Shown one piece after another: positions 8,773 to 63,959 of a DNA stretch of 64,000 nt. Source of the DNA: Ostreococcus lucimarinus (Eukaryota). Numbering within the stretch: position 1 is the first letter of the stretch; every line of letters begins with the position of its first letter. A program made the position numbers and the translations under genes. Below the pieces are notes generated by a model. That model was not told the origin of the DNA, made no database searches, and saw only the letters and a list, made by a program, of their open reading frames with translations. Where the stretch lies: assembly GCA_000092065.1 (NCBI GenBank), contig CP000589.1, one strand, 5' to 3'.

Positions 8773-9867
8773 CTATTCAGAGCGGCGCCACTCCGCGTTG
8801 TCGATCGCACGGCTTCGATCGGTATCGAAAATCCTGAATAGTAAATCAAATACTTCCGTCTCGCTCGGCGCTCCGACGTTCCCGGCTTCGGTGCGCATGA
8901 CGTCGCGAAGCGCCTCGCGAGTCACCGAAGATCCGTCGACGCCGGAAAAGGCGTTGTCGAGCGAATCGAGATTCCCGAGAATATACTGCATCGACGCTAG
9001 CTCGCCCGCGCGAGCGCTCGTAAGCTCACCAGCCTTGCGGAATCTGCGCATGAACGCGTACCAAACCGCAGTGGAACCGATGAGGATACCGCCAGCGACG
9101 CTCCAGAATACTCCAATCGGCGCGGTTTCCAAGCCGTGCGGCATATTCATGCCTCCGAGACCCGCCGGCACCGCGGCTACGGCGGCGGAGAGGGCGAAGA
9201 CAGTTGCCCTAAAGTTCATCTGTACGGTACGATTCCTATCACCGTCGAGCTGAAGTTCCCAGAGTTCGCGCGCGCTGTCTAGATCCGCACTAAGCTCTCG
9301 CACTAAGCCTCCGACGGCTGCCAAGCGTCTGGCGTGGCTCGCCAGCACGTCCGTCACCGCGTCGTTTCGCTCCTCCGCCGCCTTTTCGTCGAACACAACA
9401 TCCATGGGTGTCGGTACCAAGTTTGTCGTCGTCATCGCCGCGTTTAACGCTTCCGAGGCTTCGCGAGCGTCTTGCTCAAACTCCTTAATCGCGCGACGAA
9501 TCGGCGGCAACTTTTGCCACTGCGCCGCGTTGTAATTCAAGCTCCCTCCCGTCACGATCCCGCTCTTCCCATCGCCTCGCAAATCGCTCGAGATCTCATC
9601 CACGCAGTGCCTCGCCAACCGCCGCAACCTAAATATTTTTTCTTCAAAATATCGCGAGCTCGCCTCGAGCGCGCACTCGAGCGCCGCCAGCGGAAAATCC
9701 TTCACCGTCCGCGCCTCCGCCCCCGCGCTTCCCTCCGCCGCGTCTCGTTCGCCGACCCACGTCCGCAGCGTATCCACGATGTTCTTCGCCACGCGCGTCG
9801 CCGGTTCGAACACGTACGCGCACTTCGGTCCGACGAGCGTCGTCGTCGGCCCCATTCGCACAACCAT
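8773..9867 (-). CDS. CorA/Mrs2-family magnesium transporter with C-terminal EF-hand
   Basis: GMN motif (LGGMNMPHG) followed by two C-terminal TM helices and a terminal canonical EF-hand loop DTDRSRAIDNAE. The listed ORF opens on GTG at 9888; the first ATG is at 9865-9867 (MVVRMGPTT). The frame stays open upstream with no ATG, so the 5' end is uncertain. Confidence 0.75.
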   Translation of the reverse strand: MVVRMGPTTTLVGPKCAYVFEPATRVAKNIVDTLRTWVGERDAAEGSAGAEARTVKDFPLAALECALEASSRYFEEKIFRLRRLARHCVDEISSDLRGDGKSGIVTGGSLNYNAAQWQKLPPIRRAIKEFEQDAREASEALNAAMTTTNLVPTPMDVVFDEKAAEERNDAVTDVLASHARRLAAVGGLVRELSADLDSARELWELQLDGDRNRTVQMNFRATVFALSAAVAAVPAGLGGMNMPHGLETAPIGVFWSVAGGILIGSTAVWYAFMRRFRKAGELTSARAGELASMQYILGNLDSLDNAFSGVDGSSVTREALRDVMRTEAGNVGAPSETEVFDLLFRIFDTDRSRAIDNAEWRRSE

Positions 9868-11518: not shown

Positions 11519-13764
11519 CTAGGTTGTCTTTCTAAGCCTGAGTAGCATTCTAATTTCCGCGATATTCTCGTGAGCGTGAGCTTCGAGTTCATACACGAAA
11601 TCATCAAGCGCATCTTCCGGTACGACGAGCAAATTCAGGCGAGTCGACAGAGCTTCGAATCGCTCGATGCTCTCGCGAGCTGTCATCGTCTTTCGTACCC
11701 ATGAAACGTACGCGTTGACGTCGAGCTTGAGTTGCATAGCGCCAACTATGGTATACGTATATCTGCACACGTGTCTGAAGAGCAAGGAATAAAATTGAGC
11801 GCCGATTTCATTCAAGAGCGTCGCCGCGTTTGCCGAATCCAAGCATTCGAGCGTCGTCTTCGCCAAACCGTCGAGAGCATCAACCACGGCTACGCACGCC
11901 TCTGTCTCACGCTCGGCAAACGATGATTCGTCATTGAAGTCTACCGCTCGCTGCGTACCACGGAATTTAGCGTCCACTAGCGTCATGCCGCGCGTCGTCA
12001 TGGCCTCTAAGACCTCCGACATTTCCTCGGCGAGTCGGCTTTGCGCGACGGCAAACATTTGCCGCACTGTGCCAGGAGAGAGCTCCGAGTTCATCGTATC
12101 GATCGCATCGCGCGCACGTGCGAGCCACGCGTTCATGTTCCTGGAAGCGAGCAACACGGGCTCGAACACATCGGCGCGTGCTTCTTCACGCGTCGTCCAG
12201 GCGTTGAGACGCGCGCTCGCCGACTTTGTCGCCGCAATCGATTCGCGAAGATGCCTCTGCGCGAGACGGGTGACGCGGCCCAGGAATGCCTCGGCGAGCC
12301 GTGCTCGCACGCTTTCAATCGAAGTCCCAGGCACGCACGATTCGACTCGAAGAAGCGCTTCTTTGTAACGAGCACATAAATCATCCAGAGAGAACTCAGT
12401 CGCGTCGCGCTGCGGCAAGACGTCGTCATCGCTGGGCACCGAGTCCAAACAAGCGCACTCATCGTCCACGAGCGTCTCACACCCGATGCCAAAAAACACG
12501 TCCGGATCGATCGCCTCAACGTCTGCGTCGTCGTTCGTCATTTCACGTATCGCGCGATTCAAAATCTCAATCTCGCGCAACGACAGCGCCGTGAGTGCCA
12601 GGCGCTGCCGAAGCGACGCTGCGGTGCGCAATTCGGTGGTGAGAAAAGTCTCAACGTACGCCCCGATTCGCTGCTCCGCGATCCGATGCACGAGAGTGTT
12701 AAGAACGACGATAGCGCGCGAATCGAACGCGGCGGTAATCGATTGAAATTCCCTTTTCACCGCGCTTTGAATTTGCGCAAAAAATGTGCGAACGCACTCG
12801 GTGCACAAAGATTCATCCTCGCCGAGAATCACCGATCGCTCGACGACGTTACGAAGGCGTTGAATCTCTTCCATCGCGTTCGCAGAGATGAACATTTCAC
12901 GGCTCGCGACGTACCGCGAGACGACGCTGTGTCCGCCGTTGAACTCAAATAACGCCTCAGCGTCGGCTCGCGCTGCTGCGTACGACTTATTCGCGCACGC
13001 CGCGGCAAATTTGTCCAAAAGTGCGTTTTCAACGTCTTCACAGTACCTTTGCAACGCCGTCGAGGCGTCCTTGAGCGCTAATCGCTCCGCGCCCGCGTCC
13101 TCGTCCGCGATGCGACACGACTGCGCGCGTTCGACGACGGAGAGTGATCTTTTCGCCAAGCGTCCCGCTTCGCCTCGTCGCGCCGCGTCCGCAAACAGTC
13201 CATCGCACGCCTTCGCGACCGCTTCGCCACCCTTAGAAAACGCACACACGCACTCCAAAACATCAGCCAACGTCCCCAACGCGTCGGCGCGTCGACTCGC
13301 GCTCGCAGCTTCCGCGTTCGCCGGCGACTCCAACCGTTCCAACACGCGTTCCGTCATTAACGACGCCCTCGCCATGTCCTCGCACACACTTTCGCGTTCT
13401 ACCGCGTGTTTCTTCACCGTCTCCCGCAGTGTGCGCGCCGCGCCCTCCGCGCTCGCTCGCCGAAGCTCGGCGCGCGCCGCGCTCTCCGCCCTTCGTCGCT
13501 CCAGCGCGTCAACCACCTTCTGCGCGCCCGCGATCGCGTCCTCCACCCCTCCGCGCGCGGCTTCGGCGCAGAGTGACACCGCGACGTCGCGCGCGCGCCT
13601 CGCGCCGTGCTGCGCGCGTCGATGCGAGTCAGTCACCGCGCGTCGTCTCGACAAAGTTCGTTGGTTCGAGTTGGTTCGAAAGACGACGCGAAACGCACCT
13701 CGGCGAAGGCTTCGAGGGACGTGGAGACATCGTCGAGCGCGCGGTCGAGGGCGGCGACATCCAT
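11519..13764 (-). CDS. SEC10: Exocyst complex component Sec10 (EXOC5), two exons: 13699..13764 and 11519..13609
   Basis: The C-terminus ...LSTRLNLLVVPEDALDDFVYELEAHAHENIAEIRMLLRLR aligns with the human EXOC5 C-terminus (CNLLVVAPDNL...). The N-terminal exon MDVAALDRALDDVSTSLEAFAE joins through an 89-nt intron (donor GAG|GTGCGT, branch GGTGACTGAC, acceptor CGCGCAG). Confidence 0.8.
13610..13698 (-). other. Spliceosomal intron (89 nt, phase 0) in Sec10
   Basis: Minus-strand sequence GTGCGTTTCG...GGTGACTGACTCGCATCGACGCGCGCAG. Splicing removes the in-frame stop and joins the MDVAALDR... exon to the main ORF frame. Confidence 0.7.
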
Positions 13765-13950: not shown

Positions 13951-15000
13951 CTAGTCGATGAAGATGCGCCGAAGCGGGTCTCTGGCGAGTTCGCGCATGC
14001 GCGCGTCGTAGTGCAACTGCGCCCAGCGCGCCTTGCCGCCGTCCGATTCCATATCCCGCCTAAACTGTCGCGCCACGTCGTCGCCGATGATGCTCAGGGG
14101 TGAACCGGTGGACATGGCTAAGATTTGCACCTCCGCCGCGCGCTCGAGATAGTACAAATCATCGAACGCCTCGGCGACGGAGGCGCCGCACACGATGACG
14201 CCGTGATGCTTGTGCATCAACACCCGTTTCCCATCCATCACCTTCACCAATCGCTCGCCCTCGGTGTTATCCAACACCAATCCGTTAAAAGTCGGGTCGT
14301 ACGCCACGTCTTCGGCGAATCGCAACGAGTTTTGATGACACATCGCCAACTCGAACGACTCCACGCAACACAGCGCGCTCGCGCGCGGCATGTGCGTGTG
14401 CAGCACGCACGCCACTCCCGCGCGGTGTATCGCGAGATGTATAAAAAACGCCGTCGCGTCCACCTCTCCCGACCCCTCGAGCAACTTCCCGCGCCCATCG
14501 ATCATCACCAGATTACTCGCCGAGACCTCGCTCCACGCCAACCCGTACGGCGCGCACAGAAACGCATCCTCTCGCCCCGGCGCCGCGCACGTCAGGTGAT
14601 TGCACACGCCCTCGTTGAATCCAAGCTTATCGCACAGCTGATAGCACGCCGCGAGCTCGACGCGCGCGCGCCAGACGTCGGCGTCGTACCCTTCGATCGG
14701 CGGCGTGAGGTCGACGTTCCGCCAGGGGTCGCGCCGCGCCGCCGCGTCGCCGTCGCCGACGCGCGGGTACGCGCGCCTCGGCGCGTCGTCCGCCATCTCG
14801 CGCGCGCGCCGGTGCCTCGCGCGCGTCGCGCGTCGCGCCGTGACGTCGTCGCGTCGAGCGCCCGCGACCGACCGATAGCCGCTGACTGTTTGCGCATACG
14901 CGTCATCCGCGACCGACGGCGCGACGCTTCGTATATCGCGCGCCGCGTCGGCGGCGACACATCGCGACGGCGCGCCGCGCGCGCGGAGGCGCGACGCCAT
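13951..15000 (-). CDS. Class II aldolase/adducin-domain protein
   Basis: Class II aldolase fold motifs (CVLHTHMPRASALC; HGVIVCGASVAEAFDDLYYLERAAEVQ) are present. An alternative start at ATG 14794-14796 (MADDAPRR...) would avoid overlapping the divergent gene's start. Confidence 0.75.
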   Translation of the reverse strand: MASRLRARGAPSRCVAADAARDIRSVAPSVADDAYAQTVSGYRSVAGARRDDVTARRATRARHRRAREMADDAPRRAYPRVGDGDAAARRDPWRNVDLTPPIEGYDADVWRARVELAACYQLCDKLGFNEGVCNHLTCAAPGREDAFLCAPYGLAWSEVSASNLVMIDGRGKLLEGSGEVDATAFFIHLAIHRAGVACVLHTHMPRASALCCVESFELAMCHQNSLRFAEDVAYDPTFNGLVLDNTEGERLVKVMDGKRVLMHKHHGVIVCGASVAEAFDDLYYLERAAEVQILAMSTGSPLSIIGDDVARQFRRDMESDGGKARWAQLHYDARMRELARDPLRRIFID

Positions 15001-15206
15001 GCTCGACGTCGACGGCGACGAGTGCGAGGACGCGGTGCGCGCGCGATCGCGCGAGCGCGGTTCGAGCGCGCGCGCGACGCGCGAGACGCGCGATGCGCGC
15101 GAAAGATGGCGACGGCGGCGGCGACGCGGCGAGTCATCTTGCGCGCGCGAGGACGACGCGCGGCGACTGACGGCGCGAATGGCGCGCGCGATAGGGGCAC
15201 GAACGC

Positions 15207-29961: not shown

Positions 29962-30540
29962 ATCGATCGCGCGACGTCGTCCGACGGCGTGACGTCGACG
30001 TCACGCGCGACGCGCGCGTCGGCACACACGCGCGCGAGTTTCGACGACGCACGATGCACGCCGCGAGCGCGCGAACGATCGCGACGACCGCGCCGCGGGC
30101 GAATAAAAATGTTTCCGAGCGCCGCGCGCGACGGGGGGCGCACGCGCGACGCGCGGCGGCGAGAGAGGTGCGCGAACGATGCGACGCGACGCGCGATGCG
30201 GGCGCGTGGGGTCGGGGGGGGACGCGACGCGCGATGCAGGCGCGCGCGAACGCGCGCGGGGGACGAAGGCGCGCGAATGCGATGGGGGACGTTTGCGCGA
30301 CGCGAACGGCGGCGCGCGCGGCGGTGGATCGCGCGGGCGTCGTCGGGAAGGGGTGGATAAGCGAGATGACGATGGATGACGACGTGGCCCTGGACCGGGG
30401 CGACGACGCGCGGGCGGGCGGCGACGCTCGCGACGATTGGCGAACGCGGGTGACTGACGGTGATGATTGGGTTTGTGAACGCGTAGGATACGACGAACGA
30501 TGTCGCTAAAGTGGCGGCGACGCTCGCGGCGGTGGCGGCG

Positions 30541-32496
30541 ATGACGAACGGCGCGTTCGCCGGGGCGGCGCGCGCGGACGCGTTCAACGCGGCGCCGACG
30601 GAACAAGTGCAACAACAGCGCGGTGAGGCGGTGTCCGCGTTCGCGGATGCGTCCAAGGAAGCACCGGCGGTGAACGCCGATGGGTTGCCGGAAGGGAACA
30701 ACTGGCGTTACAGCGAATTCATCAAGGCGGTGATGAGCGGCAAGGTTGAGCGCGTGCGCTTCTCCAAGGATGGCTCCGCGTTGCAGTTGACCGCGGTCAA
30801 CGGTGCGCGCGCGACCGTCATCTTGCCCAACGATCCGGAACTCGTCGACATCCTGGCCAAGAATGGTGTCGACATCTCCGTCAGCGAAGGCGAGCAACAG
30901 GGCAACGCCGCCTCTTTGGTCGGCAACTTGTTGTTCCCGCTCGTGGCGTTCGGAGGTTTGTTCTTCTTGTTCCGCCGCGCGCAAGGTGGCGATGGCGGCA
31001 TGGGTGGCATGGGTGGTATGGGCGGTGGACCCATGGACTTCGGTAAGTCCAAGTCCAAGTTCCAAGAAGTTCCGGAAACCGGTGTGACGTTCGCGGACGT
31101 CGCCGGCGTCGAAGGCGCCAAGTTGGAATTGCAAGAAGTCGTCGACTTTTTGAAGAACCCAGACAAGTACACCGCGCTCGGTGCCAAGATCCCGAAGGGT
31201 TGCCTTTTGGTCGGTCCGCCGGGTACCGGTAAGACCCTGATCGCCAAGGCGGTCGCCGGTGAAGCCGGTGTGCCGTTCTTCTCTTGCGCCGCGTCCGAGT
31301 TCGTCGAACTCTTCGTCGGCGTTGGCGCGTCTCGCGTTCGCGACTTGTTCGAAAAGGCCAAGGCCAAGGCTCCGTGCATCATCTTCATCGATGAAATCGA
31401 CGCCGTCGGTCGCCAACGTGGCTCCGGTATGGGTGGTGGCAACGACGAGCGCGAACAGACCATCAACCAGCTTCTCACCGAGATGGATGGTTTCGAAGGC
31501 AACACGGGCGTCATCGTCCTTGCGGCGACGAACAGACCGGACGTGCTCGATAGCGCGCTCCTTCGCCCGGGACGTTTCGATCGTCAAGTTACCGTCGATC
31601 GTCCGGACGTCGCTGGTCGCATCCGCATCCTCAAGGTGCACGCCCGTGGCAAGACTTTGGCCAAGGACGTCGACTTCGACAAGATCGCTCGCCGTACGCC
31701 GGGTTTCACGGGTGCCGATTTGGAAAACCTCATGAACGAGTCCGCGATTCTCGCCGCGCGCCGTGAACTCACGGAAATCTCCAAGGAAGAAATCGCCGAT
31801 GCTCTCGAGCGCATCATCGCCGGTGCCGCCAGAGAAGGTGCCGTCATGTCTGAGAAGAAGAAGAAGCTCGTGGCGTACCACGAAGCTGGCCACGCGCTCG
31901 TCGGGGCCCTCATGCCGGATTACGACGCCGTGACGAAGATTTCCATCGTCCCGCGCGGTAACGCCGGTGGTTTGACTTTCTTCGCCCCGAGCGAAGAGCG
32001 TCTCGAATCTGGCTTGTACTCTCGCACGTACCTTGAGAACCAAATGGCTGTCGCCATGGGTGGTCGCGTCGCCGAAGAACTCATCTTCGGCGCTGAAGAC
32101 GTCACCACGGGCGCGTCCGGTGATTTCCAGCAAGTCACCCGCACCGCGCGTATGATGATCGAGCAAATGGGTTTCTCCAAGCGAATTGGTCAAATCGCCA
32201 TCAAGTCTGGCGGCGGTAACTCTTTCCTTGGCAACGACATGGGTCGCGCCGCTGATTACTCCGCCGCCACCGCCGCCATCGTCGATGAAGAAGTCAAGAT
32301 CTTGGTCACTGCGGCCTACCGCCGCGCCAAGGACTTGGTTCAATTGAACATGGACGTCTTGCACGCCGTCGCGGACGTGTTGATGGAGAAGGAGAACATC
32401 GACGGCGACGAATTCGAGCGCATCATGCTCGGCGCCAAGTCGGAGCTCTACCTCAAGGCGGACGAGCCTTCGGTCGCAGTGCCGTACCAAAACTGA
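30541..32496 (+). CDS. ftsH: ATP-dependent zinc metalloprotease FtsH (thylakoid type)
   Basis: FtsH_ext-like N-domain (NNWRYSEF...), Walker A/B (GPPGTGKT; [10 protein letters not shown]), SRH, HEAGHA zinc site and C-terminal helices. The first ATG in the exon is 30541, but the frame opens right after TAG at 30484-30486. An upstream exon at 30108..30167 is possible (see findings). Confidence 0.9.
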
Positions 32497-34721: not shown

Positions 34722-35230
34722 ATGCGGCGACGACGGCGCTCGCGCGCGCGCGCGCGCGCGGTGGTCATCGCGTGCGTCGTCGCCGCGCTGTGCGCGGGGT
34801 GCGAGGTGCGCGCGCGACGCCGCGGGCGCGCGAAGGCGACGTCGCGAACATCGTTGACGCGACGACGAACGACTGACGACGACGACGCGACGACGGGGGC
34901 TCGCGACGCGCGCAGGGCGCGAGCGGGAATAAAAAACGACGGCAGCGCGCGCACCGCGCGAATTCGCTCGATCGAGAGCTGTCGGTGAAGCGGGAGGCGT
35001 GCGCGGCGAGCGCGCGCGCGGAGCGGCCCGAGTGCGACGACGGGGACGACGCGTCGGTGATGGAGAATTGCGTGTTGAGGTGCGCGAGCGCGAGTTGTTA
35101 CGACGAAGTGTACGGACGCGATGCGCTGGAGGAGGGAGAGGTGGACACGGAGCGTGGACGGGCGTTTCGGTCGTGCGCGAGGGAGGAGTTGAGGCGGTTG
35201 CGCGGGTATCAGACGTTCGGGACGGAGTGA
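34722..35230 (+). CDS. Small Cys-rich protein with N-terminal signal-like segment; two exons 34722..34805 and 34916..35230 (alternative ATG 34650)
   Basis: Exon 1 encodes MRRRRRSRARARAVVIACVVAALCAGCE. The 110-nt intron has donor GAG|GTGCGCGCGCG, branch CGACTGACGACG and acceptor CGCGCAG. Exon 2 (GASGNKKRRQ...REACAASARAERPECDDGDDASVMENCVLRCASASCYDEVYG...SCAREELRRLRGYQTFGTE*) has high GC3. Phase 0 on both sides. Confidence 0.5.
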
Positions 35231-36012: not shown

Positions 36013-36515
36013 CGCGCGCGACGTTCGCGCGCCGTTCGCGCGGCGTCGTGTGCGGCGCGGCGCGCGTCGATCGCGTCGGTGGATAACATTGGCGCCGCGC
36101 GCGAGTGTCAAATCTCTCGACGTCGCGACGACGCGCGGCACACGCGCGCGCGGCGACGCCGAGCGCGCGCGCCAACGGCGAGGATGGTGCGCGCGAACGA
36201 TGCGCGTCGAACGGCGCGCGCGATGCGCGCTCGCGACGCGCGCGCGCGCGCGGCGGGAGATGATTGCGTCGAACGAACGAATGCGCGACGACGCGTTCGA
36301 CGCGCTGACGACGACGCGATGAGGGACTGACGACGGCGCGAACGCGCGAACGCGCGCAGAGTTCGTTCGTGAAAGCGGGGTCGTACGACCCGACGCTCGT
36401 GGACGTGGAGCTGACGGCGGAGGAGGCGAAGACGCGGGCCAACCGCCGGGACGCGTTTCGGGAGCACCTGCGCGCGACGCTCGCGGAGAAGGAGCTCGTG
36501 GGGGCGTTCGCGAAG

Positions 36516-37055
36516 ATGTATAGGATGAATGAGAAACCGAAGGATCCGTTACAGTGGTTGCTGGATTACTTTGAACGCGATCAGAGGGAGCATATACGAC
36601 GCGCGGAGGAGACGGCGGAGACGTATCGCTCAGAGTTGCTGAGAGCGGAACAAGAGCGGGATTCGTTGATCGCGAAGATGGAAGTGATGCGGCAAAAGGT
36701 GAGCAATTTGGAGCGCACGGTGCAGGAGCTTCGCGACGGAGGGCGCAAGCACGTCGTGGGAGTGTACGGTGGGGAGGAGATGCCCACGGGGGCCGACGCA
36801 CCCGCGCCCGCCGAAAAGGAGAACGACAAAAAGGAGAAGAAGGAGAAGAAAGAGAAGAAGGAGAAGAAGGAGAAGAAAGAGAAGAAAGAGAAGAAGGAAA
36901 AGGAGAGCGCGGCGAGGCCTCCATCCGATGATGAGTTTTTCGGCAACTCGAAGGAAACCTTCGGGTCGATGAAAATGAAGACGACTCCCGATATGTTCGA
37001 CGACAGCGACAGCTCAAGCCTACCGAAACAACAATCTCTTCGCGATCAAGTGTAA
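36516..37055 (+). CDS. RIIa/DPY-30-like dimerisation-motif coiled-coil protein with (KEKKE)n repeat
   Basis: PKDPLQWLLDYFERDQREHIRR is a DPY-30/RIIa-like motif, followed by a coiled coil and KEKKEKKEKKEKKEKKEKKEKKEK. The listed ORF opens on GTG at 36369. An ATG-only first exon at 36184 plus a 173-nt intron is possible. Confidence 0.5.
   Translation: MYRMNEKPKDPLQWLLDYFERDQREHIRRAEETAETYRSELLRAEQERDSLIAKMEVMRQKVSNLERTVQELRDGGRKHVVGVYGGEEMPTGADAPAPAEKENDKKEKKEKKEKKEKKEKKEKKEKKEKESAARPPSDDEFFGNSKETFGSMKMKTTPDMFDDSDSSSLPKQQSLRDQV
36829..36900 (+). repeat. Hexanucleotide-based AAGGAG/AAGAAG tandem repeat encoding (KEKKE)n
   Basis: aaggagaagaaggagaagaaagagaagaaggagaagaaggagaagaaagagaagaaagagaagaag. 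Confidence 0.85.
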
Positions 37056-57337: not shown

Positions 57338-60300
57338 ATGCGCGCCGTCGGCGCGACGAGCGAGCGCGGCGTCGAGCGCGCGACGACCGCGACGCGCGCG
57401 ACGACGCGCGCGACGACGCGCGCGGGCATGCGTCGAGCGCGGGCGCTCGCGCGCGCGCTCGAACGGATTCGGTTGACGACGAGACGACGAGACGTGTGGA
57501 CGCGCGGCGTCGCGGACGGCGATGGCGCGGGCGCGCGGGACGGCGCGAGCGTCGCGACGAGCGATTCGCTCGACGCGCGCGCGGTCGTGGTGCGTGCGAG
57601 CGCGCGAGGGCGTCGAGGGCGAGGGATCTCTGGTGAACGCGCGCGCGGTTTGATTTTTAAAAGATTGGACGGAGGAAAGACGGGCGACGGGCGAGCGATG
57701 GCGGACTGACGACGACGACGCGCGCGCGAATGATGACGCAGGATCGATTGCGCGCGGGGCTGGCGTACGAGATGAGCAATGGGTGCGCGAACGCGAAGGG
57801 GAAGGCGTTCGACGATTTTCAGAGCTTTCTCACGGCGTCGCTTCGGGAGTTGGAGCGATCGCACGCGTCGCCGATGCTCGCGCACATGGTGCGGGATTCG
57901 ACGGTGTATGGGAATTTGGACGTCGATCGACGACAGCGGTTGCTGCAGAATATGTCGACGGCGCTGCCTGGGGTGATTCAGCGCGGCGAAACGGCGCCGC
58001 CGGCGAGGTCGCCGCAGACGCCGCGAGCGTGGTCGCCGCCGAGCGCTGCGCCGGTGGTCGAGCGCGCGGGGGCGACGTCGGTAGTTTCATCGAACATGGG
58101 TGGTGTCGCGAGCGGGTCGAAGCGGACTCCGGCGGTGGCGGCTGCGAAGACGAAGGAGGACGCGCCGAAGACGAAGGCGCCGACGGTGTCGCGAGATTCG
58201 TCCGAGTTCCCCACCATTATTGTTTTCGATTTAGAGACCACCGGGTTGAGCAAGGAGAAGAGTCGAATCATCGAGCTCGCGGCGCAGTCGCTCTCGGATC
58301 CGTCCGCGGCGTTCAGCACGCTCGTGAATCCCGGTCGGTTTACGATTCCAGCCGCCATCACCTCGCTCACGGGCATCACCAACAGCATGGTGAGCGCTTC
58401 GAACGTGCCGTCGTTCGCGATGGCGGCCGAGCAGTTGGAAGCATTTATTGAAAGCGCCCGCCAGTCGCGCCCGGGGGCGCCGATCTTGCTTGTCGCGCAC
58501 AACGCGCGTCAGTTTGACGCGGCTTTTATGCAGCATGAATACCGTCGTCTTGGGCGTGAGTTGCCGTCGAGTTGGAGATTCTGTGATACCTTGCCGCTCG
58601 CGCGCGCGCTGCTGCGTCCGGAAGGATTGGCAAAGTTCAACATGGATGTCCTACGGGAATACTACGGCGTGTCGATCGATGGTGAAGACACACAAATGCA
58701 CCGCGCAGGGACGGACGCTCGAGTGTTGGCTGAAATCCTCAACAAACTACTCGAGCATCCCAATGCGAAGGACGACGAGCTTGGGTGCTTGGAGAAGTAC
58801 TCATTTTCGCTCGGCGATCCGGGCGCGGGGAGTTTGAAGCGAGCGACCGCGGATGCCAAGTCTGAGAGCGAACGCTCGTCCTACGCGGGCGGCGCGCCGG
58901 GCTGGGGCGGCGGCGGTACAGTGAACTTGAGCGACGGCGAAGAAGCCGACGTCGGTGGTGGATGGGCCGCGGTCGATGAATTCGCAAACGAAGAAAATAT
59001 GGAATTTGAGAGTGACTCGAGCTCGATGTCGTCAAACGATGTGCCTCTTCGAGGTATGCAGAAGCCGTTTTGGGCCGCCGAGGATCCCATCAACGGTATT
59101 CTCCCCGAAACTGTCGACTTTCAGAAACTCGCCGAAATCGCCGCTAAGACGGACACCTCCGAGCTTCGTCTCGACCTAGAGCGATGGAAAGAAACATCGA
59201 TCGAAGCGCTCAAGGATAAAGTCCCGAAGTCGACTATGAAGGCGCTGAAAGCCGAAGGCATCAACACCATCGAAGCCGTATTGCGCAACTGCCCGCGCAA
59301 GTATCAAGAGTACAGCGTTTGGAACAAGTCTCTCGCACAAGGCACACAAGTGACCCTCACTGGGACAGTTCGTTCGATGCAAGTGCGCGATTACATGCGT
59401 GGGCGTGCGATCCCGAACACGGTGTTGGTCGAAGTCGACGTACGCGAGGACGAACTCACGCCGACAGAGGACGATCCGTGGGGCGCAAATAAGCCTCGGT
59501 GCAAAGTTAAAGTGTGGGACTACATTTCGAAGGATGCTCGCGAAGAAATGCCGATCGGTGCTCGGGTGAGTGTCCGCGGCACTTTGGGTACGGGCGATAG
59601 GAACTGCCAGTTCAGCGTGGACGGCGGTCGTGTCGTTCCGATTGCCGCAGATGCGCCGGTATTTGCGTCCGACTCGTCGGAAATTGTCGCCACGTACGCC
59701 AAGCGTGGAGCGATGAGCAATGTTGAGTGGCATCGCGCGGTGAACGCATCGATGGACATTTTCCTAGCGAAGCTTCCCGCCGATCCCATGGAGGTATCGA
59801 TGGGCCGCGATAATCCATTGCTCGCCGAACTCGGATTGCTTTCGCATTCGGAGGCGGTGAAGAATATTCACAGGCCACGAAACGTCGAGGCTGTGGCGCA
59901 AGCGCGAGAGCGATTGGCGTTTGAAGAATTGGTTTTATTACAAGTGGCGCTTCTACAAGAACGCAGTCGTTTACAGGCGCTTCCCGTGTCCGAGTCGACC
60001 GAAGGCGTGTGCATTGTCGGCACTGCTCTCACGGACGAGTTGCGCAGCGAGTTACCGTTTGCGCTTACGCGATCTCAAGAGTCTTCACTCGAAGAAATTT
60101 TGAGCGATATGGCCGGGCCGGCACCGATGTTGCGCCTACTCCAAGGTGATGTGGGGTGCGGTAAGACTGTCGTTGCCGCCATGGCGCTCCTCGCGGCGGT
60201 CGGTGCAGGACATCAAGGCGCGTTCATGGCGCCGACTGAAGTACTCGCCACGCAGCACCACCGCGTGCTCACGGATTTGCTTTCACAAATGCGAGATCCA

Positions 60301-61419
60301 CCGAAAGTGGCGTTACTCACTGGTTCAACGAAAACTGCTGAACGTGCGCAAATTCTCGAGGATTTGAATGACGGAAAGATTGGAATTATTGTTGGCACGC
60401 ACGCTTTGATTCACGAAAAAGTTGTATTCAGCTCACTCGGCATCGCCGTCGTCGATGAACAGCATCGTTTTGGCGTGGAGCAACGCGCTGGATTATTGGC
60501 AAAAGGTAAGCTCCCACCGCACATGCTTACCATGAGCGCAACGCCGATTCCGCGCACACTCGCGATGACAAAGTTTGGCGAGATGGCTTTGAGCGTCATC
60601 GACGAGAAACCCGCTGGCCGTTTGCCAATCATCACAACGGTGTGCGGTGTCGACGAGCACTCGCAAGCCTACGATTCGATGTGCGAAGAAGTGAGCCGCG
60701 GCGGGCAGGCTTACGTCATCTTGCGTCTCGTGAACGAATCCGGATCGTCTCGCATGTCTGAAGTGAAGGGCGCGGAGGAGGAATACGCTCGTCTCGTGAG
60801 CAAGTATCCAAATGTACGATTCGGACTCTTGCACGGGCAGTTGGGCGCGGACGAAAAAGCCGCGGCGCTAGAAAAGTTTAGTTCTGGAGAAACTCAAGCC
60901 CTGGTCGCTACGTCAGTCGTTGAAGTTGGTGTGGACGTGCCGAATGCGAGCGTCATCATCATCGAAGACGCAGACGGTTTCGGTCTCGCCGCGCTTCACC
61001 AGCTTCGAGGTCGTGTCGGACGCGGCGCACGTCAGTCGAAGTGCTTCTTGTTACACTCTCCTGGCGCAGGGGAGAACGCGGAGTTGAAGGGAGATCGCGC
61101 GCGCGACCGTCTTCGTGTGCTCGAGCAATCAAACAACGGCTTCCGAATTGCCGAGAGCGATTTACAGCTCCGCGGCGCTGGCGAGCTCTTCGGCACGAAA
61201 CAAAGCGGCCAGCAGGTGAACCTGTTCCACGCATCGATGTCAACAGATCTCTATTTACTCGAAGCCGCTCGCAAGGCGGCGGCAGAGATGATTTCACGCG
61301 CCTCCTTGCAACAGGAACCACTCCCGGCGCCGGTGACGGTCGCTTTAGAAACGCGGCCCGCGTTGATCCTCGACAACGCCATCATCTCTGGCGGTGCTCA
61401 AGCAGCGGCGACGAATTGA
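57338..61419 (+). CDS. recG: DnaQ-like DEDDh 3'-5' exonuclease fused to RecG helicase; two exons 57338..57589 and 57742..61419
   Basis: Exo I IIVFDLETTGL, Exo II LLVAHNARQFDAAFM and Exo III HRAGTDARVLAEIL are present. RecG wedge/OB region follows, then helicase motifs GDVGCGKTVVAAMA, VVDEQHRFGVEQR, SATPIPRTL and HQLRGRVGRG. The upstream exon encodes an Ala/Arg/Thr-rich presequence (MRAVGATSERGVERATTATRATTRATTRAGMRRARALARAL...). The 152-nt intron has GTGCGT donor, GGACTGAC branch and CAG acceptor. Confidence 0.8.
57590..57741 (+). other. Spliceosomal intron (152 nt, phase 0) in the exo-RecG gene
   Basis: GTGCGTGCGAGCG...GGCGGACTGACGACGACGACGCGCGCGCGAATGATGACGCAG. Exon 1 ends DARAVV| and exon 2 begins |DRLRAGLAYEMSNG in the helicase frame. 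Confidence 0.6.
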
Positions 61420-61578
61420 TGAAACCCTAGTATTAACAATCGAACACATAGGCTCGCGCATGTTGACCATTTAGCGCTCACGTACACGCTAAACAAATCA
61501 TTCGACGCGCGCATTTAACCCTGCTTTCGGGTATCCGAACAACCACTCGACGCATCGACCGCATACTCGCACTCAACC

Positions 61579-62818
61579 ATGTCCACCATGTCCGCTTCCC
61601 TCCGCACCACGTCAACCGTCAACTTGCGCGCCTGCACGTACGTTTTCGGTCGCGTTAGCGCGTCGCGTCGCGCGTCACGACGTCGCGCACGTCGAGTAAT
61701 CCGCCTTATCCGCCGAGGGCCGACAAACAGGGCGCTTACGACAGTGTCGCGGTGTCTTCTCGGTGCAGTGACGGCGCGATCACGAAGCGATAAAGTATAC
61801 TGACGATGAACCGCGTTTTCGTGTGATACGCAGGACCCGACGCGCTAGCGTTCGAGCGTCCCGCTCGGTCACCGTGCGCGCCGCCGCCGACTACTCGCCG
61901 AAGAAGGCCTTCTTCTTCCCGGGACAAGGCGCGCAAACGGTCGGCATGGCGAAGGAGCTGTGCGAAGAGTGCCCCGCGGCGAAGGCGATGTTTGACACCG
62001 CGTCCGGCGTGCTCGGGTACGACTTGCTCGATGTGTGCGTCAACGGCCCGGCGGAGCGCTTGAACTCGACGGCGGTTTCCCAGCCGGCGATTTACGTGTC
62101 TTCTTTGGCGGCGCTCGAAAAGATGAAGATGTCGGACGAAGGTAAGGCGATGATCGACTCCATCGACGTCGCCGCGGGCTTGTCTCTCGGCGAGTACACG
62201 GCTTTGACCTTTGCCGAGGCGTTGTCTTTCGAAGACGGCTTGAAGCTCGTGAAGATTCGCGGTGAGTCCATGCAAGAGGCTGCCGATGCCACGCCCTCCG
62301 GTATGGCGTCCGTCATCGGCCTCTCCGCGGATAAGGCCGAAGAACTCGCCGCACGCGCCGCCGCCGAGTCCGGGGCGCCGTGCTCGGTTGCCAACTACTT
62401 GTGCAACGGTAACTACGCCGTGTCCGGCGCCATCCCGGCTATCGACAAGGTTGAAGAAATCGCCAAGCCGGAATTCAAGGCGCGTATGGTCGTGCGTCTC
62501 GCCGTCGCCGGTGCGTTCCACACCGACTTCATGGCCCCGGCCGCGGACAAGCTCAAGGCTGCGCTCGAAGCGACACCGATTAAGGAGCCGCGCATCCCGG
62601 TCATTTCCAACGTCGACGTCAACCCGCACACGGACGCCGCGAGCATTCGCGCCACGTTGGCGAAGCAGCTCACCAACCCGGTGCAATGGGAAACCACGAT
62701 GACCACGCTCCTCGGTAAGGGCTTGGAGTCTGCGACGGAAGTTGGTCCGGGCAAGGTGATCAGCGGTATCATGAAGCGCGTGGATAAGGCGTTTGCGTGC
62801 GACAACTTCACCGTTTAA
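61579..62818 (+). CDS. fabD: Malonyl-CoA:ACP transacylase (FabD), plastid type II FAS; two exons 61579..61637 and 61834..62818
   Basis: FabD motifs FFFPGQGAQ and GLSLGEYTAL are present, with an ACP-binding region. Exon 1 encodes MSTMSASLRTTSTVNLRAC (transit-peptide start). Splicing is phase 2 with donor GTACGT, branch TATACTGAC and acceptor ACGCAG. The in-frame result is ...LRACT|TRRASVRASRSV.... TGTAA at 62830. Confidence 0.85.
61638..61833 (+). other. Spliceosomal intron (196 nt, phase 2) in FabD
   Basis: Donor GTACGT at 61638, branch TACTGAC at 61797-61803, acceptor CAG at 61831-61833. Exon 1 carries 19 codons plus 2 nt, matching the phase needed by the downstream FabD frame, which has no ATG of its own. 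Confidence 0.8.
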
Positions 62819-62897
62819 ACTCGAACGCGTGTAATAAATTATTAGCTACAACATCCAATGGGTGCGTCATTAAATAATAGGGAAACGGATGCTACGG

Positions 62898-63959
62898 TTA
62901 CTTGACTTGTCTGATTTTGCACTCGCGCACGAGCGGAAATTTTGTTTTGATGGCTTGCGCGATGGAGAAGGCGAGCGCTTTCGGTCCTCTAAACTTCAAC
63001 ACGCACACGCCCCTTTCGAGCGACTCCACGCTCGCCTCGCCCCCGTAGCTCGCGATAGACTTTCGAAGCTTTTCCAAATGCCCCTCGATCGTCTCGATCG
63101 TCATCTCTTCCAATTCACCGCTCACGTCGACGACTTCTTCCACGGCGTCGCCGAATTTTTGCTTTAAAAGTTTTTCGATCCCCCCCTTCATCGTCGCCGA
63201 CGACGACGCGCACGTCCCGCACGCCCCATTCAACCGCACGACGATGATCTTGCCTTCAATCTTCACGAGCTCGACGTTACCACCGTCGGCGACCAAATAC
63301 GGTCGCACCTCGTCGAGCGCTTCGTCCACGTTTTCCATCGTCGGCGGCAACTTCGGCGACTCGTCCACCGCGTCCGCGTTCTCCTCTTTCGCCGCCTCCG
63401 CGAACGGACTCACCACGCTCGCGCTCGCATCCGCGCCCTCGATTCCCGTCGCGCTCACCTCCGCCTCCGCCGTCCCGCTCGCCGCCCCGTCCTCCGCGTC
63501 CCGCGCCCCGTTCGCCCCCCCCGTCTCCCCCTCTCCCAGCGCCTCCCGCCACCGTCGCGCCTCCGCGCGCAGCGTCGCTCGCGTCGCCATCGCCGCGTTC
63601 CGAAACGCCATCACGCGCGCCGTGCGCGCGCCCTCGCCGTCCCGCGCTCGCGCCGCCCGCAGCGCCGTCGCCACGTTCGTCGCGTAGTCCACCCCCGTGC
63701 ACGTCCCTCGCGCGTCGAACGTCGCGAACACCCCCGCCGGCGCGTCGCGCGCGTACAGTTCCAGCCACGCGTCGACGCTCGCGCGCGCCGTGCCGTCCTC
63801 GGCGAGCGCTCGCGGCGCGCGCGCTCGCGCCGTCGCGCGCCGACGGTCCGCGCGCGCGCGCACGCGCCGCGCCGCGACGCGCGCGTCGCGCGCGCGCGTC
63901 GGCGCGCGCGCGGGACCGCGCGACGCGACGCGCGCGTCGGCGCCTCGCGTCGCGCGCAT
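62898..63959 (-). CDS. NifU-like (NFU/CnfU-type) iron-sulfur cluster scaffold protein with tandem NifU C-terminal domains; 5' end uncertain near window edge
   Basis: The first NifU-like domain (MENVDEALDEVRPYLVADGGNVELVKIEGKIIVVRLNGACGTCASSSATMKGGIEKLL) has the CxxC motif. A second, degenerate NifU-like domain follows, as in plastid NFU proteins. Confidence 0.75.
   Translation of the reverse strand: MRATRGADARVASRGPARAPTRARDARVAARRVRARADRRRATARARAPRALAEDGTARASVDAWLELYARDAPAGVFATFDARGTCTGVDYATNVATALRAARARDGEGARTARVMAFRNAAMATRATLRAEARRWREALGEGETGGANGARDAEDGAASGTAEAEVSATGIEGADASASVVSPFAEAAKEENADAVDESPKLPPTMENVDEALDEVRPYLVADGGNVELVKIEGKIIVVRLNGACGTCASSSATMKGGIEKLLKQKFGDAVEEVVDVSGELEEMTIETIEGHLEKLRKSIASYGGEASVESLERGVCVLKFRGPKALAFSIAQAIKTKFPLVRECKIRQVK

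Follow-up and report, generated by a model that had tools for sequence, protein, structure and literature searches.

The window, by which we mean the whole 64,000-nt stretch of contig CP000589.1 analysed here, is nuclear DNA of Ostreococcus lucimarinus CCE9901, a very small green alga of the sea, and carries on its minus strand a gene for Sec10. Its main reading frame (exon 2, 11519–13609, minus strand; 696 codons plus stop, with a Pfam Sec10_HB domain) has a first in-frame ATG only at codon +78. Adjoining it are a phase 0 intron of 89 nt (13610–13698, minus strand; GTGCGTTT ... tgACTGACtc, branch A 19 nt before CAG) and the coding part of exon 1 (13699–13764, minus strand), which comprises 22 codons (MDVAALDRALDDVSTSLEAFAE). 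The spliced product is exactly identical to RefSeq XP_001419797.1 from strain CCE9901, and the intron is thus already present in RefSeq. Both its position and its signals recur in the orthologous sequences L022, L023 and L024 (51% amino acid identity to Sec10), where exon 1 counts 22 codons in L022 and L024 and 21 in L023 (peptides MEVSALDRALDDVATSIDVFAE in L022 and MHVAALERAIDDITSLDVLAE in L023).

The remaining six genes considered here lie on the plus strand. In the Methyltransf_16 (lysine methyltransferase-like) gene, a first exon of 12 codons (14999–15034; MLDVDGDECEDA) is followed by a phase 0 intron of 160 nt (15035–15194; GTGCGCGC ... cgACTGACgg, branch A 24 nt before TAG), the acceptor TAG of which reads as a stop codon in the frame of exon 2. 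The orthologous exon 1 likewise has 12 codons (MLDVDADEDEDA in L023, MLARAIDACDDE in L022), and the intron position is kept with lengths of 167 nt in L023 and 152 nt in L022. The FtsH gene begins with 38 codons (exon 1, 30054–30167) that, judged by composition, resemble a transit peptide. These are followed by a phase 0 intron of 319 nt (30168–30486; GTGCGCGA ... tgACTGACgg, branch A 29 nt before TAG). Orthologous introns at the same codon and phase measure 323 nt in L028 (GTACGC/ACTGAC/CAG) and 338 nt in L025 (GTGCGT/ACTGAC/AAG). RefSeq XP_001419590.1 lacks FtsH exon 1, begins with MTNGAFAG and comprises 651 aa, as compared with 707 aa for the spliced product.

The gene described at first as a small Cys-rich gene encodes, according to Pfam, a DUF4787 protein. 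Its exon 1 (34722–34805; start ATG at 34722 or 34650) specifies an Arg-rich and then a hydrophobic stretch, a signal- or anchor-like arrangement by its appearance, and is followed by a phase 0 intron of 110 nt (34806–34915; GTGCGCGC ... cgACTGACga, branch A 39 nt before CAG). The orthologous first exons in L028 and L025 likewise end in a hydrophobic segment followed by E|G or D|G across the junction, and the introns at this position are 120 nt (L028, branch ACTAAC) and 117 nt long (L025, branch ACTGAA, acceptor TAG). The ACTAAC in this one Ostreococcus orthologue is a yeast-like branch motif. RefSeq XP_001419592.1 corresponds to the final 56 aa of the spliced DUF4787 protein (~132 aa) and cuts the Pfam domain. 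The label ‘RIIa’ of another gene found no Pfam support and is retained here for convenience. The coding part of its exon 1 is the ATG alone (36184–36186), and the start codon is directly abutted by an intron of 173 nt (36187–36359; GTGCGCGC ... ggACTGACga, branch A 29 nt before CAG). When read unspliced, this gene has its first in-frame ATG 52 codons downstream. The orthologues in L025 and L026 are intronless, begin with MSARARDGSRDPTL, and are colinear with the spliced M|SSFVKAGSYDPTL.

The exonuclease-RecG gene has a first exon of 84 codons counted from the ATG at 57338 (57338–57589; a second ATG lies at 57428), the Arg/Ala/Thr-rich product of which looks like a presequence. Its phase 0 intron of 152 nt (57590–57741; GTGCGTGC ... 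ggACTGACga, branch A 32 nt before CAG) contains an in-frame ATGATG at 57730, the two ATGs lying 12 and 9 nt before the acceptor, so splicing is not strictly required here for a start codon. This raises the question of whether the RecG intron might be facultative, its removal yielding an organelle-targeted protein with an 84-aa presequence and its retention, or internal initiation, a 1229-aa protein from ATG 57730, in the manner of a dual-localisation switch. The exon-2 frame indeed continues without a stop through the adjoining 81 nt of the intron, and gene callers report the 1229-aa ORF on 25 contigs. However, these entries are prokaryote-style ORF calls on genomic contigs and are no proof of expression, and in L018, which is 93% identical, the ATGATG has become GACGAC while donor, branch and acceptor as well as the ATG and peptide of exon 1 are kept. 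We therefore consider such a switch very unlikely. Between these two sequences, the intron interior differs by many indels with lengths not divisible by 3, as opposed to a single in-frame 3-codon indel in exon 1.

Finally, the gene for FabD (malonyl-CoA:ACP transacylase) starts with a coding exon 1 of 19 codons plus 2 nt (61579–61637), followed by a phase 2 intron of 196 nt (61638–61833; GTACGTTT ... atACTGACga, branch A 30 nt before CAG). The corresponding RefSeq entry, XP_001419598.1, starts at an internal Met, does without the intron, cuts the Pfam domain, and comprises 290 aa instead of the 347 aa supported by cDNA.

Signals and phases shared by the seven introns

A preliminary description of this DNA had proposed that all seven introns share one set of splice signals, and this was borne out on the strand assigned to each of them: they start with GTGCGC (n = 4), GTGCGT (n = 2) or GTACGT (n = 1), end with CAG or TAG, and hence have GT...AG ends on the coding strand in 7/7 cases. 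The hexamer ACTGAC is invariant among them and is part of the longer form GACTGACG in five of the seven; the exon base preceding the donor is G except in FabD, where it is C. The distance from the branch A to the 3' splice site had been put at 15–30 nt, which proved slightly too narrow, as we measured 19–39 nt, with RecG (32 nt) and the DUF4787 gene (39 nt) as the outliers. The shortest of the introns measures 89 nt and the longest 319 nt. Each intron is the first of its own gene and sits inside the first 84 codons. All are in phase 0 apart from that of FabD (phase 2), and their removal gives one continuous frame with a start codon in every one of the seven genes. With the exception of RecG, these genes have no in-frame ATG ahead of the acceptor. 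The notion that splicing is needed to obtain a start codon or a conserved N-terminus stands for Sec10 and FabD, yet not, as regards the start codon, for RecG.

For Sec10, the methyltransferase, FtsH and DUF4787, the introns of divergent Ostreococcus sit at the corresponding codon and in the corresponding phase. In these four genes, the signals are kept across the divergent genomes while the interior varies freely, both in size and in its remainder modulo 3. As judged from the orthologue lengths modulo 3 and from the RecG indels, the intron interiors thus behave as non-coding DNA between constrained exons. Contigs L011–L017 and L019–L021 are 99.5–99.9% identical to the window and too close to inform this comparison. 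A scan of the window against Rfam at the gathering score gave no matches to snRNAs or other structured RNAs.

Transcript evidence for splicing

Removal from mature mRNA was seen for FabD and for the orthologue of the FtsH intron. In the case of FabD, splicing is proven by ten cDNA contigs (L001–L010) that contain the exact exon-exon junction predicted beforehand. In four of the ten (L006–L009), a SMART template-switch oligo marks the 5' terminus and a poly(A) tail is present as well. The 5' termini of the cDNAs lie near 61563, and the protein encoded by the cDNA is the spliced FabD product. The source of these cDNAs was a set of closely related field metatranscriptomes, the SRR28369xxx runs. 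In the case of FtsH, the transcript-derived peptide P0065 (MMETSP0929, Ostreococcus sp. RCC789) crosses the junction (...ATNE|DSSKTTF), as opposed to the genomic ORF P0071 from the same clade, which has intron sequence at this point (MNTQ|DSSKTTF). The Logan contig L020, which may be DNA or RNA, spans the FtsH region without a splice; it begins 50 nt before the proposed ATG.

For the six junctions other than that of FabD, no transcript from O. lucimarinus itself was recovered. Exact look-up returned no identical entry for the spliced FtsH and methyltransferase products (alleles of the window, L011, L012, L019 and L020) or for the spliced DUF4787, ‘RIIa’ and RecG models (window allele). Besides, the concatenated junction-spanning N-termini, used as a protein query, matched only genomic ORF representatives, and a second, longer concatenated query, dominated by Ala/Arg-rich words, produced one match. 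A metagenome scan with the junction peptides of Sec10 (EAFAEHGA) and DUF4787 (CEGASGNK) retrieved genomic contigs only, which is a weak negative since both genes are probably lowly expressed. For the Sec10, methyltransferase, FtsH, DUF4787, RecG and ‘RIIa’ introns, we infer excision in O. lucimarinus itself.

Gene context as the source of the signal

In GC-rich DNA, hexamers of this kind are common, and the seven sites could in principle reflect their chance co-occurrence, in which case the genes would be intronless and begin at internal ATGs (for RecG, at the ATG inside the proposed intron). We searched the window for the strict triple of donor, ACTGAC and YAG with a span of 45–400 nt and found 8 distinct acceptors, as compared with 4.7 +/- 2.3 in dinucleotide-preserving shuffles; GTGCGC alone occurs 141 times. 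In six of the eight strict matches, a mini-exon that begins with ATG runs on in frame into 150 or more open codons, and the DUF4787 gene was left unscored because its 104 downstream codons fall below this cut-off. The eighth strict match (60901–61030, minus strand), antisense within RecG, was rejected as it has no intron context. Letter-permuted decoy grammars applied to the real sequence never exceeded 5 sites (391 decoys), but 23% of their matches likewise joined ORFs, since long open frames are plentiful in GC-rich DNA. A relaxed grammar combined with an ORF-boundary rule recovered only the previously noted sites plus two antisense false matches. The intron signal consequently stems from gene context and not from the motifs alone. 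The set had been put forward as a rule for re-annotation, and as such it is usable when combined with ORF-boundary and conservation checks, whereas the motifs on their own occur at about the chance rate.

Seven of the 17 ACTGAC hexamers in the 128 kb of two-strand sequence fall within the 1.2 kb made up by the seven introns, a count with some circularity, given that this motif guided the choice of sites. When the other ten ACTGAC sites in the window were inspected for intron context, none was seen. We also considered selection against cryptic branch sites, as CTGAC occurs 48 times against 108 expected. Among the 512 5-mers, however, it comes only 24th in order of depletion; the deficit is therefore nothing special and the idea was dropped.

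Taken at face value, the modest excess over shuffles, the decoy rate, the RefSeq models that begin at internal Mets without introns (XP_001419590.1, XP_001419592.1 and XP_001419598.1) and the readability of RecG from the in-frame ATG 57730 would all be compatible with chance. Against this stand the FabD cDNAs, spliced precisely as predicted, and the splicing of the orthologous FtsH intron in the transcriptome of a sister species. Exon-1 peptides and splice signals are moreover kept in divergent species, the intron interiors are not, the internal-Met models cut the Pfam domains of FabD and DUF4787, the ATG inside the RecG intron is not conserved, and the ACTGAC hexamers cluster as stated, with the circularity noted above. 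Chance co-occurrence in intronless genes is therefore extremely unlikely.

Discussion

We consider it almost certain that the seven sites are ordinary U2-type (GT-AG) nuclear spliceosomal introns of O. lucimarinus CCE9901 and, by their signals, belong to the canonical class that this species uses outside chromosome 2. The central claim of the preliminary description, namely introns with shared signals the removal of which restores start codons and N-termini, is supported by the FabD cDNAs, the FtsH orthologue transcript and conservation. This class has a near-invariant (A)G|GTGCG[TC] donor and a yeast-like, rigid (G)ACTGAC(G) branch 19–39 nt before YAG. With each of the seven introns taken out, the main ORF is continuous with a short first exon that supplies the ATG. 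Recognition by the U1 and U2 snRNPs would presumably proceed in the standard manner; the point that the C at +4 is a mismatch to standard U1 comes from the Micromonas literature. GC content in the window is 55–68%, which, along with the sparse, long-consensus introns, would fit the type outside chromosome 2. As for the first exons themselves, those of FtsH, FabD and RecG resemble presequences and may serve in organelle targeting, and that of DUF4787 resembles a signal or anchor peptide and might act as one.

Hemiascomycete yeast introns are biased to the 5' ends of genes. The yeast set (GTATGT ... TACTAAC ... YAG) and the introns described here are alike in being few, in their rigid 5' splice and branch sites and in their position at the 5' end, sometimes just after the ATG. 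They differ in the motifs themselves (GTGCGT and ACTGAC here, not GTATGT and ACTAAC), in the lineage and in the GC-rich DNA that surrounds the algal introns. Irimia & Roy (2008, PLoS Genet 4:e1000148, PMC2483917) regard this likeness as a convergence of genomes with few introns.

The novelty implied by the preliminary description did not hold up, given that the grammar was published for O. lucimarinus in 2008 and for the order in 2013. Irimia & Roy (2008) reported the donor of this species as an ‘atypical consensus GTGCGTG’ and found ACTGAC in 87.2% and GACTGACG in 66.5% of 319 EST-confirmed O. lucimarinus introns outside chromosome 2. Our seven introns come from the same species and are of the same kind, with GTGCG[TC] in 6/7, GTACGT in 1/7, ACTGAC in 7/7 and GACTGACG in 5/7. 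Their lengths (89–319 nt) are likewise comparable with those of all predicted O. lucimarinus introns (median 111, mean 168; Table 2 of PMC2483917). In kind they do not depart from the published class. The gene models in RefSeq omit at least three of them. In Micromonas RCC299 and CCMP1545, canonical introns have an AG|GTGCGT donor and an NCTGAC branch, and this canonical class has been described in all Mamiellophyceae (Verhelst et al. 2013, PMC3879977). There, the branch motif lies 43–52 bp before the acceptor, as opposed to the 19–39 nt between branch A and 3' splice site measured here. Mamiellales have besides been reported to favour ‘GYGCGY’ donors (bioRxiv 10.1101/2022.06.08.495308).

Uniform signals might also be explained if the introns were copies of a mobile, repeated family that spread recently, akin to the introner elements of Micromonas, and this would account for the absence of the ‘RIIa’ intron from a sister species. 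Elements of the Micromonas introner class IE-C, which are spliceosomal and occur in the same algal order, indeed share the GACTGACG branch, several of our introns begin with strings resembling GTGCGCGCG(A)ACGATGCG, one species has the ‘RIIa’ intron that another lacks, and local alignments between interiors exceed mononucleotide shuffles (z = 10 for FtsH-RIIa, z = 9.7 for KMT-RIIa). Measured against GC-matched segments of the window, however, the best pair reaches only p ~0.003, uncorrected for 21 pairs, with the others at 0.04–0.19, and the best alignment consists of (CG)n low-complexity sequence. Introner elements form repeated families with similarity between copies, whereas here only splice signals and CG-rich low complexity are shared, lengths spread from 89 to 319 nt, and a common core is absent. 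Besides, five introns sit at positions conserved across species and, as these include species with only 51% Sec10 identity, must be old; most of the seven thus occupy positions of ancient conservation. Comparison of the seven copies in the window revealed no interior similarity beyond the splice motifs, and we rejected an introner-like repeat family, to which we would attach next to no probability, in favour of ordinary canonical introns.

With the signal set itself already known, fresh value lies only in the correction of truncated public gene models. At least three RefSeq proteins in the window, FabD, FtsH and DUF4787, are truncated at the N-terminus, their first exon and intron having escaped annotation. 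Missing from XP_001419598.1 (FabD) are the presequence and the first part of the acyltransferase domain, from XP_001419590.1 (FtsH) a presumed transit peptide, and from XP_001419592.1 (DUF4787) a signal-like peptide together with half of the domain. Such truncations skew predictions of subcellular location as well as orthologue comparisons.

For biology at large, the introns described here mean little, as they are a textbook case of rigid splice signals in intron-poor genomes. The ‘RIIa’ intron (36187–36359) carries the complete GTGCGC/GACTGACG/CAG set and could, as a tentative and rather doubtful reading, have been gained recently and solely in the lineage of O. lucimarinus; because only two species were compared, gain in O. 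lucimarinus and loss in the other lineage are not told apart. If it were a gain, it would represent a datable one in an intron-poor genome, and it would suggest that new introns bring the rigid consensus with them or acquire it very soon.

Splice signals and layout of the introns

The donor, branch and YAG signals assigned to seven introns in the preliminary description are present on the proposed strand in all of them: Sec10 (13610-13698, minus strand), a Methyltransf_16, lysine methyltransferase-like gene (15035-15194), FtsH (30168-30486), a small Cys-rich gene whose product is a DUF4787 protein (Pfam E = 5e-17; 34806-34915), the gene labelled 'RIIa' (36187-36359), RecG (57590-57741) and FabD (61638-61833). 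Each interval starts with GTGCGT, GTGCGC or GTACGT, ends in CAG or TAG and contains an invariant ACTGAC hexamer, extended to GACTGACG in five introns, while the branch A lies 19-39 nt from the acceptor, a slightly wider range than the proposed 15-30 nt. Six introns are in phase 0 and that of FabD in phase 2, and all are located at or before codon 84, the coding part of exon 1 in the 'RIIa' gene being the ATG alone. All seven are best explained as ordinary spliceosomal introns of the U2 type. Each is the first in its gene and has the rigid signals typical of an intron-poor genome. The window itself, with a GC content of 55-68% and genes densely packed on both strands, is nuclear DNA of a very compact green alga genome.

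This intron class is already known. In their section on O. lucimarinus, Irimia & Roy (2008; PMC2483917) described 319 EST-confirmed introns outside chromosome 2, with ACTGAC in 87.2%, GACTGACG in 66.5% and a strong 5' splice site (4.8 bits) of the 'atypical consensus GTGCGTG'. The seven introns agree with this canonical class in every sequence criterion. Canonical Micromonas introns (AG/GTGCGT, NCTGAC) belong to a class found in all Mamiellophyceae, and GACTGACG has been cited as the extended Ostreococcus branch site (Verhelst et al. 2013; PMC3879977). U1 and U2 presumably recognise these sites in the usual way; Mamiellales reportedly favour such donors, and in the U1 snRNA of Micromonas pusilla the C at intron position 4 is reportedly matched by no compensatory change (2022 preprint, bioRxiv 10.1101/2022.06.08.495308). 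An Rfam scan of the window returned no match at gathering score. Introner elements were rejected as an origin, given that the interiors of the seven introns resemble one another no more than they resemble GC-matched segments of the window, and that the best interior alignment was CG-repeat sequence.

Removal of each intron would fuse the main ORF to a short exon 1. Judged by composition, this exon may encode an organellar presequence in FtsH, FabD and RecG, and a signal or anchor peptide in DUF4787. Six of the seven genes have no in-frame ATG ahead of the acceptor, and in FtsH and the methyltransferase gene the acceptor TAG doubles as an in-frame stop. The claim that splicing is needed to obtain a start codon fails for RecG, where an in-frame ATGATG precedes the acceptor by 12 and 9 nt.

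Transcript evidence at FabD

The predicted 347-aa spliced FabD protein was found in a protein collection and is encoded uninterrupted on 12 contigs. The ten contigs examined (L001-L010) are 99.1-100% identical to the window in alignments broken by one gap of 196 nt, and each has the two exons joined exactly as predicted. Four of them (L006-L009) open with a SMART template-switch oligo and close with poly(A), identifying them as cDNA. The FabD intron is thereby proven, and the spliced transcripts anticipated in the preliminary description exist for this gene. The FabD mRNA starts at ~61563, 16 nt upstream of the ATG; full-length cDNAs have a 16-nt 5' UTR, together with a 3' UTR of ~40 nt.

Besides, some of the cDNA-derived contigs L001-L004 (window 58063-63177) start within RecG and continue unbroken across the RecG-FabD intergenic region and FabD to beyond its stop, L001 extending to 63177, with the FabD intron removed. 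Such contigs point to overlapping or read-through transcripts, or else to assembly merging, in a compact genome.

Comparison of the introns with Ostreococcus relatives

Spliced Sec10 (exon 1, 13764-13699; exon 2, 13609-11519; minus strand) and XP_001419797.1 (O. lucimarinus CCE9901, 670,853-bp record) agree at every one of 718 residues, which identifies the window as nuclear DNA of this alga; the intron is already in the RefSeq model. In contigs of three divergent relatives (L022-L024; 51% amino-acid identity over Sec10), exon 1 opens with an ATG and has 21-22 codons (M[DEH]V[AS]AL[DE]RA[LI]DD...), followed by an intron with GTGCG[TC], ACTGAC and CAG and then by [HRT]GARRA[RH]DVA...; intron lengths in the window and the three relatives are 89, 130, 108 and 113 nt. 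The methyltransferase gene neighbours Sec10 in L022 and L023 as well, with a 12-codon exon 1 (MLDVDADEDEDA and MLARAIDACDDE versus MLDVDGDECEDA in the window) and a GTGCGC...ACTGAC...CAG intron behind it.

For FtsH, the transcriptome peptide P0065 (MMETSP0929, Ostreococcus sp. RCC789), from the FtsH protein cluster, reads ...VRASATNE/DSSKTTFATLAAF..., while P0071, a genomic ORF of the same clade (contigs L028/L029), reads MNTQ/DSSKTTF, its residues ahead of that junction being intron sequence. On L028, an exon-1 ATG opens 43 codons ending in ...KE, followed by GTACGC, ACTGAC and CAG and then GAT TCC TCA, homologous to ...ARE/GTGCGC...ACTGAC...TAG/GAT ACG ACG in the window. This arrangement recurs, with GTGCGT and ACTGAC, in a third species (L025). 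There, the intron (L025 9729-10066) contains no YAG from its branch motif to the point where conserved exon 2 begins (GAT GCG AGC), and apparently ends in AAG, which seems to be a non-consensus acceptor amid otherwise rigid signals. Of note, P0065 (1002 aa) carries the exon-2 start twice, the extra copy lying upstream of the correctly spliced N-terminus and following residues that derive from the intron (…RVNTQDSSKTTFATLAAFA…), and its C-terminus reads through into unrelated sequence; this chimeric appearance is probably an assembly artefact mixing unspliced and spliced molecules.

In the DUF4787 orthologs of L028 and L025, exon 1 encodes a hydrophobic stretch ending in E/G or D/G, and the intron has a GTGCGT donor, an ACTAAC or ACTGAA branch and a CAG or TAG acceptor. 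As the branch is the yeast-type ACTAAC in L028 (~9000-9010) and ACTGAA in L025 (~14450-14460), the ACTGAC hexamer is not invariant across the genus.

RecG could be compared with a closer clade (L018, 93.4% identity overall), in which GTG/GTGCG[TC], GGCGGACTGACGACGACGACGCGCGCG and ACGCAG/GAT are kept. The intron interior shows scattered indels that are not multiples of 3, exon 1 a single in-frame indel of three codons; the ATG at 57338 is conserved and the in-intron ATGATG is replaced by GACGAC. The gene (57338-61419) fuses an RNase_T/DnaQ-type exonuclease (PF00929, residues 164-337 of a 1229-aa ORF) to a RecG-type helicase (DEAD, Helicase_C, RecG_dom3_C), an unusual domain combination.

The 'RIIa' orthologs in L025 and L026 are intronless, and their N-terminus (MSARARDGSRDPTLIDV...) is colinear at every residue with the window's spliced M/SSFVKAGSYDPTLVDV..., as expected if the proposed junction is correct. 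The intron directly after the start codon (window 36184-36360) is present in O. lucimarinus and absent from the otherwise colinear coding sequence of another Ostreococcus species (L025 16000-16671, L026 ~6903), which may reflect either gain or loss. The label itself lacks Pfam support: a search of the protein found no RIIa or Dpy-30 domain, its sole match being a sub-threshold Med19 within a Lys/Glu repeat. This (KKE)n repeat (window 36800-36900) is longer in the sister species (L025 16450-16620).

Motif frequency and gene models

The motifs alone are not above chance; the information comes from their context. The strict triple (donor, ACTGAC and YAG) occurs at 8 acceptor sites versus 4.7 +/- 2.3 in dinucleotide-preserving shuffles, and GTGCGC occurs 141 times in the window. 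In six of the eight strict matches, a mini-exon opening with ATG continues in frame into 150 or more open codons, a cut-off that leaves the Cys-rich gene (104 downstream codons) unscored. In the real sequence, decoy grammars made by permuting letters produce such joins in 23% of their matches, with five sites as the maximum among 391 decoys. When the grammar was relaxed and an ORF-boundary rule added, six of the seven proposed introns were retrieved plus two antisense false matches, and no others. The suggested re-annotation rule is therefore usable with ORF and conservation context, but not by motifs on their own.

Across the whole window, CTGAC is found 48 times, whereas dinucleotide shuffles predict 108 +/- 10.5. 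With 23 of the 512 5-mers more depleted than CTGAC, which is 24th, this shortfall is not exceptional and gives no evidence that cryptic branch sites are selected against.

RefSeq lacks at least three of the introns. The proteins of FtsH (XP_001419590.1, window 30541-32496; starting MTNGAFAG, 651 aa versus 707 spliced), DUF4787 (XP_001419592.1, 35060-35230; only the last 56 aa of ~132) and FabD (XP_001419598.1, 61946-62818; starting MAKELCEE, 290 aa versus the cDNA-supported 347) are N-terminally truncated at internal methionines, since their models overlook exon 1 and the intron behind it. Pfam domains are cut in the DUF4787 and FabD models, the latter being in conflict with the cDNAs. Spliced models of the methyltransferase, 'RIIa' and RecG genes were not found among NCBI proteins.

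Two of the genes have divergently transcribed neighbours whose ORF starts nearly abut theirs. The methyltransferase ATG (14999, plus strand) and that of the longest aldolase-II ORF (15000, minus strand) overlap in one CATG palindrome (14998-15001), and the FtsH ATG (30054, plus strand) lies 2 nt from the GTG opening the longest MTPAP-like ORF (30052, minus strand; 30052-30056). The true starts of the aldolase-II and MTPAP-like genes probably lie further in, and the bidirectional promoter regions at both pairs must be very short.

In summary, the observation on the seven sites is confirmed and the evidence supports its interpretation once three points are corrected: the start-codon claim for RecG, the range of branch distances and the naming of 'RIIa'. 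The practical yield for this genome is a few gene-model corrections, together with the caution that the motif rule requires ORF and conservation context.
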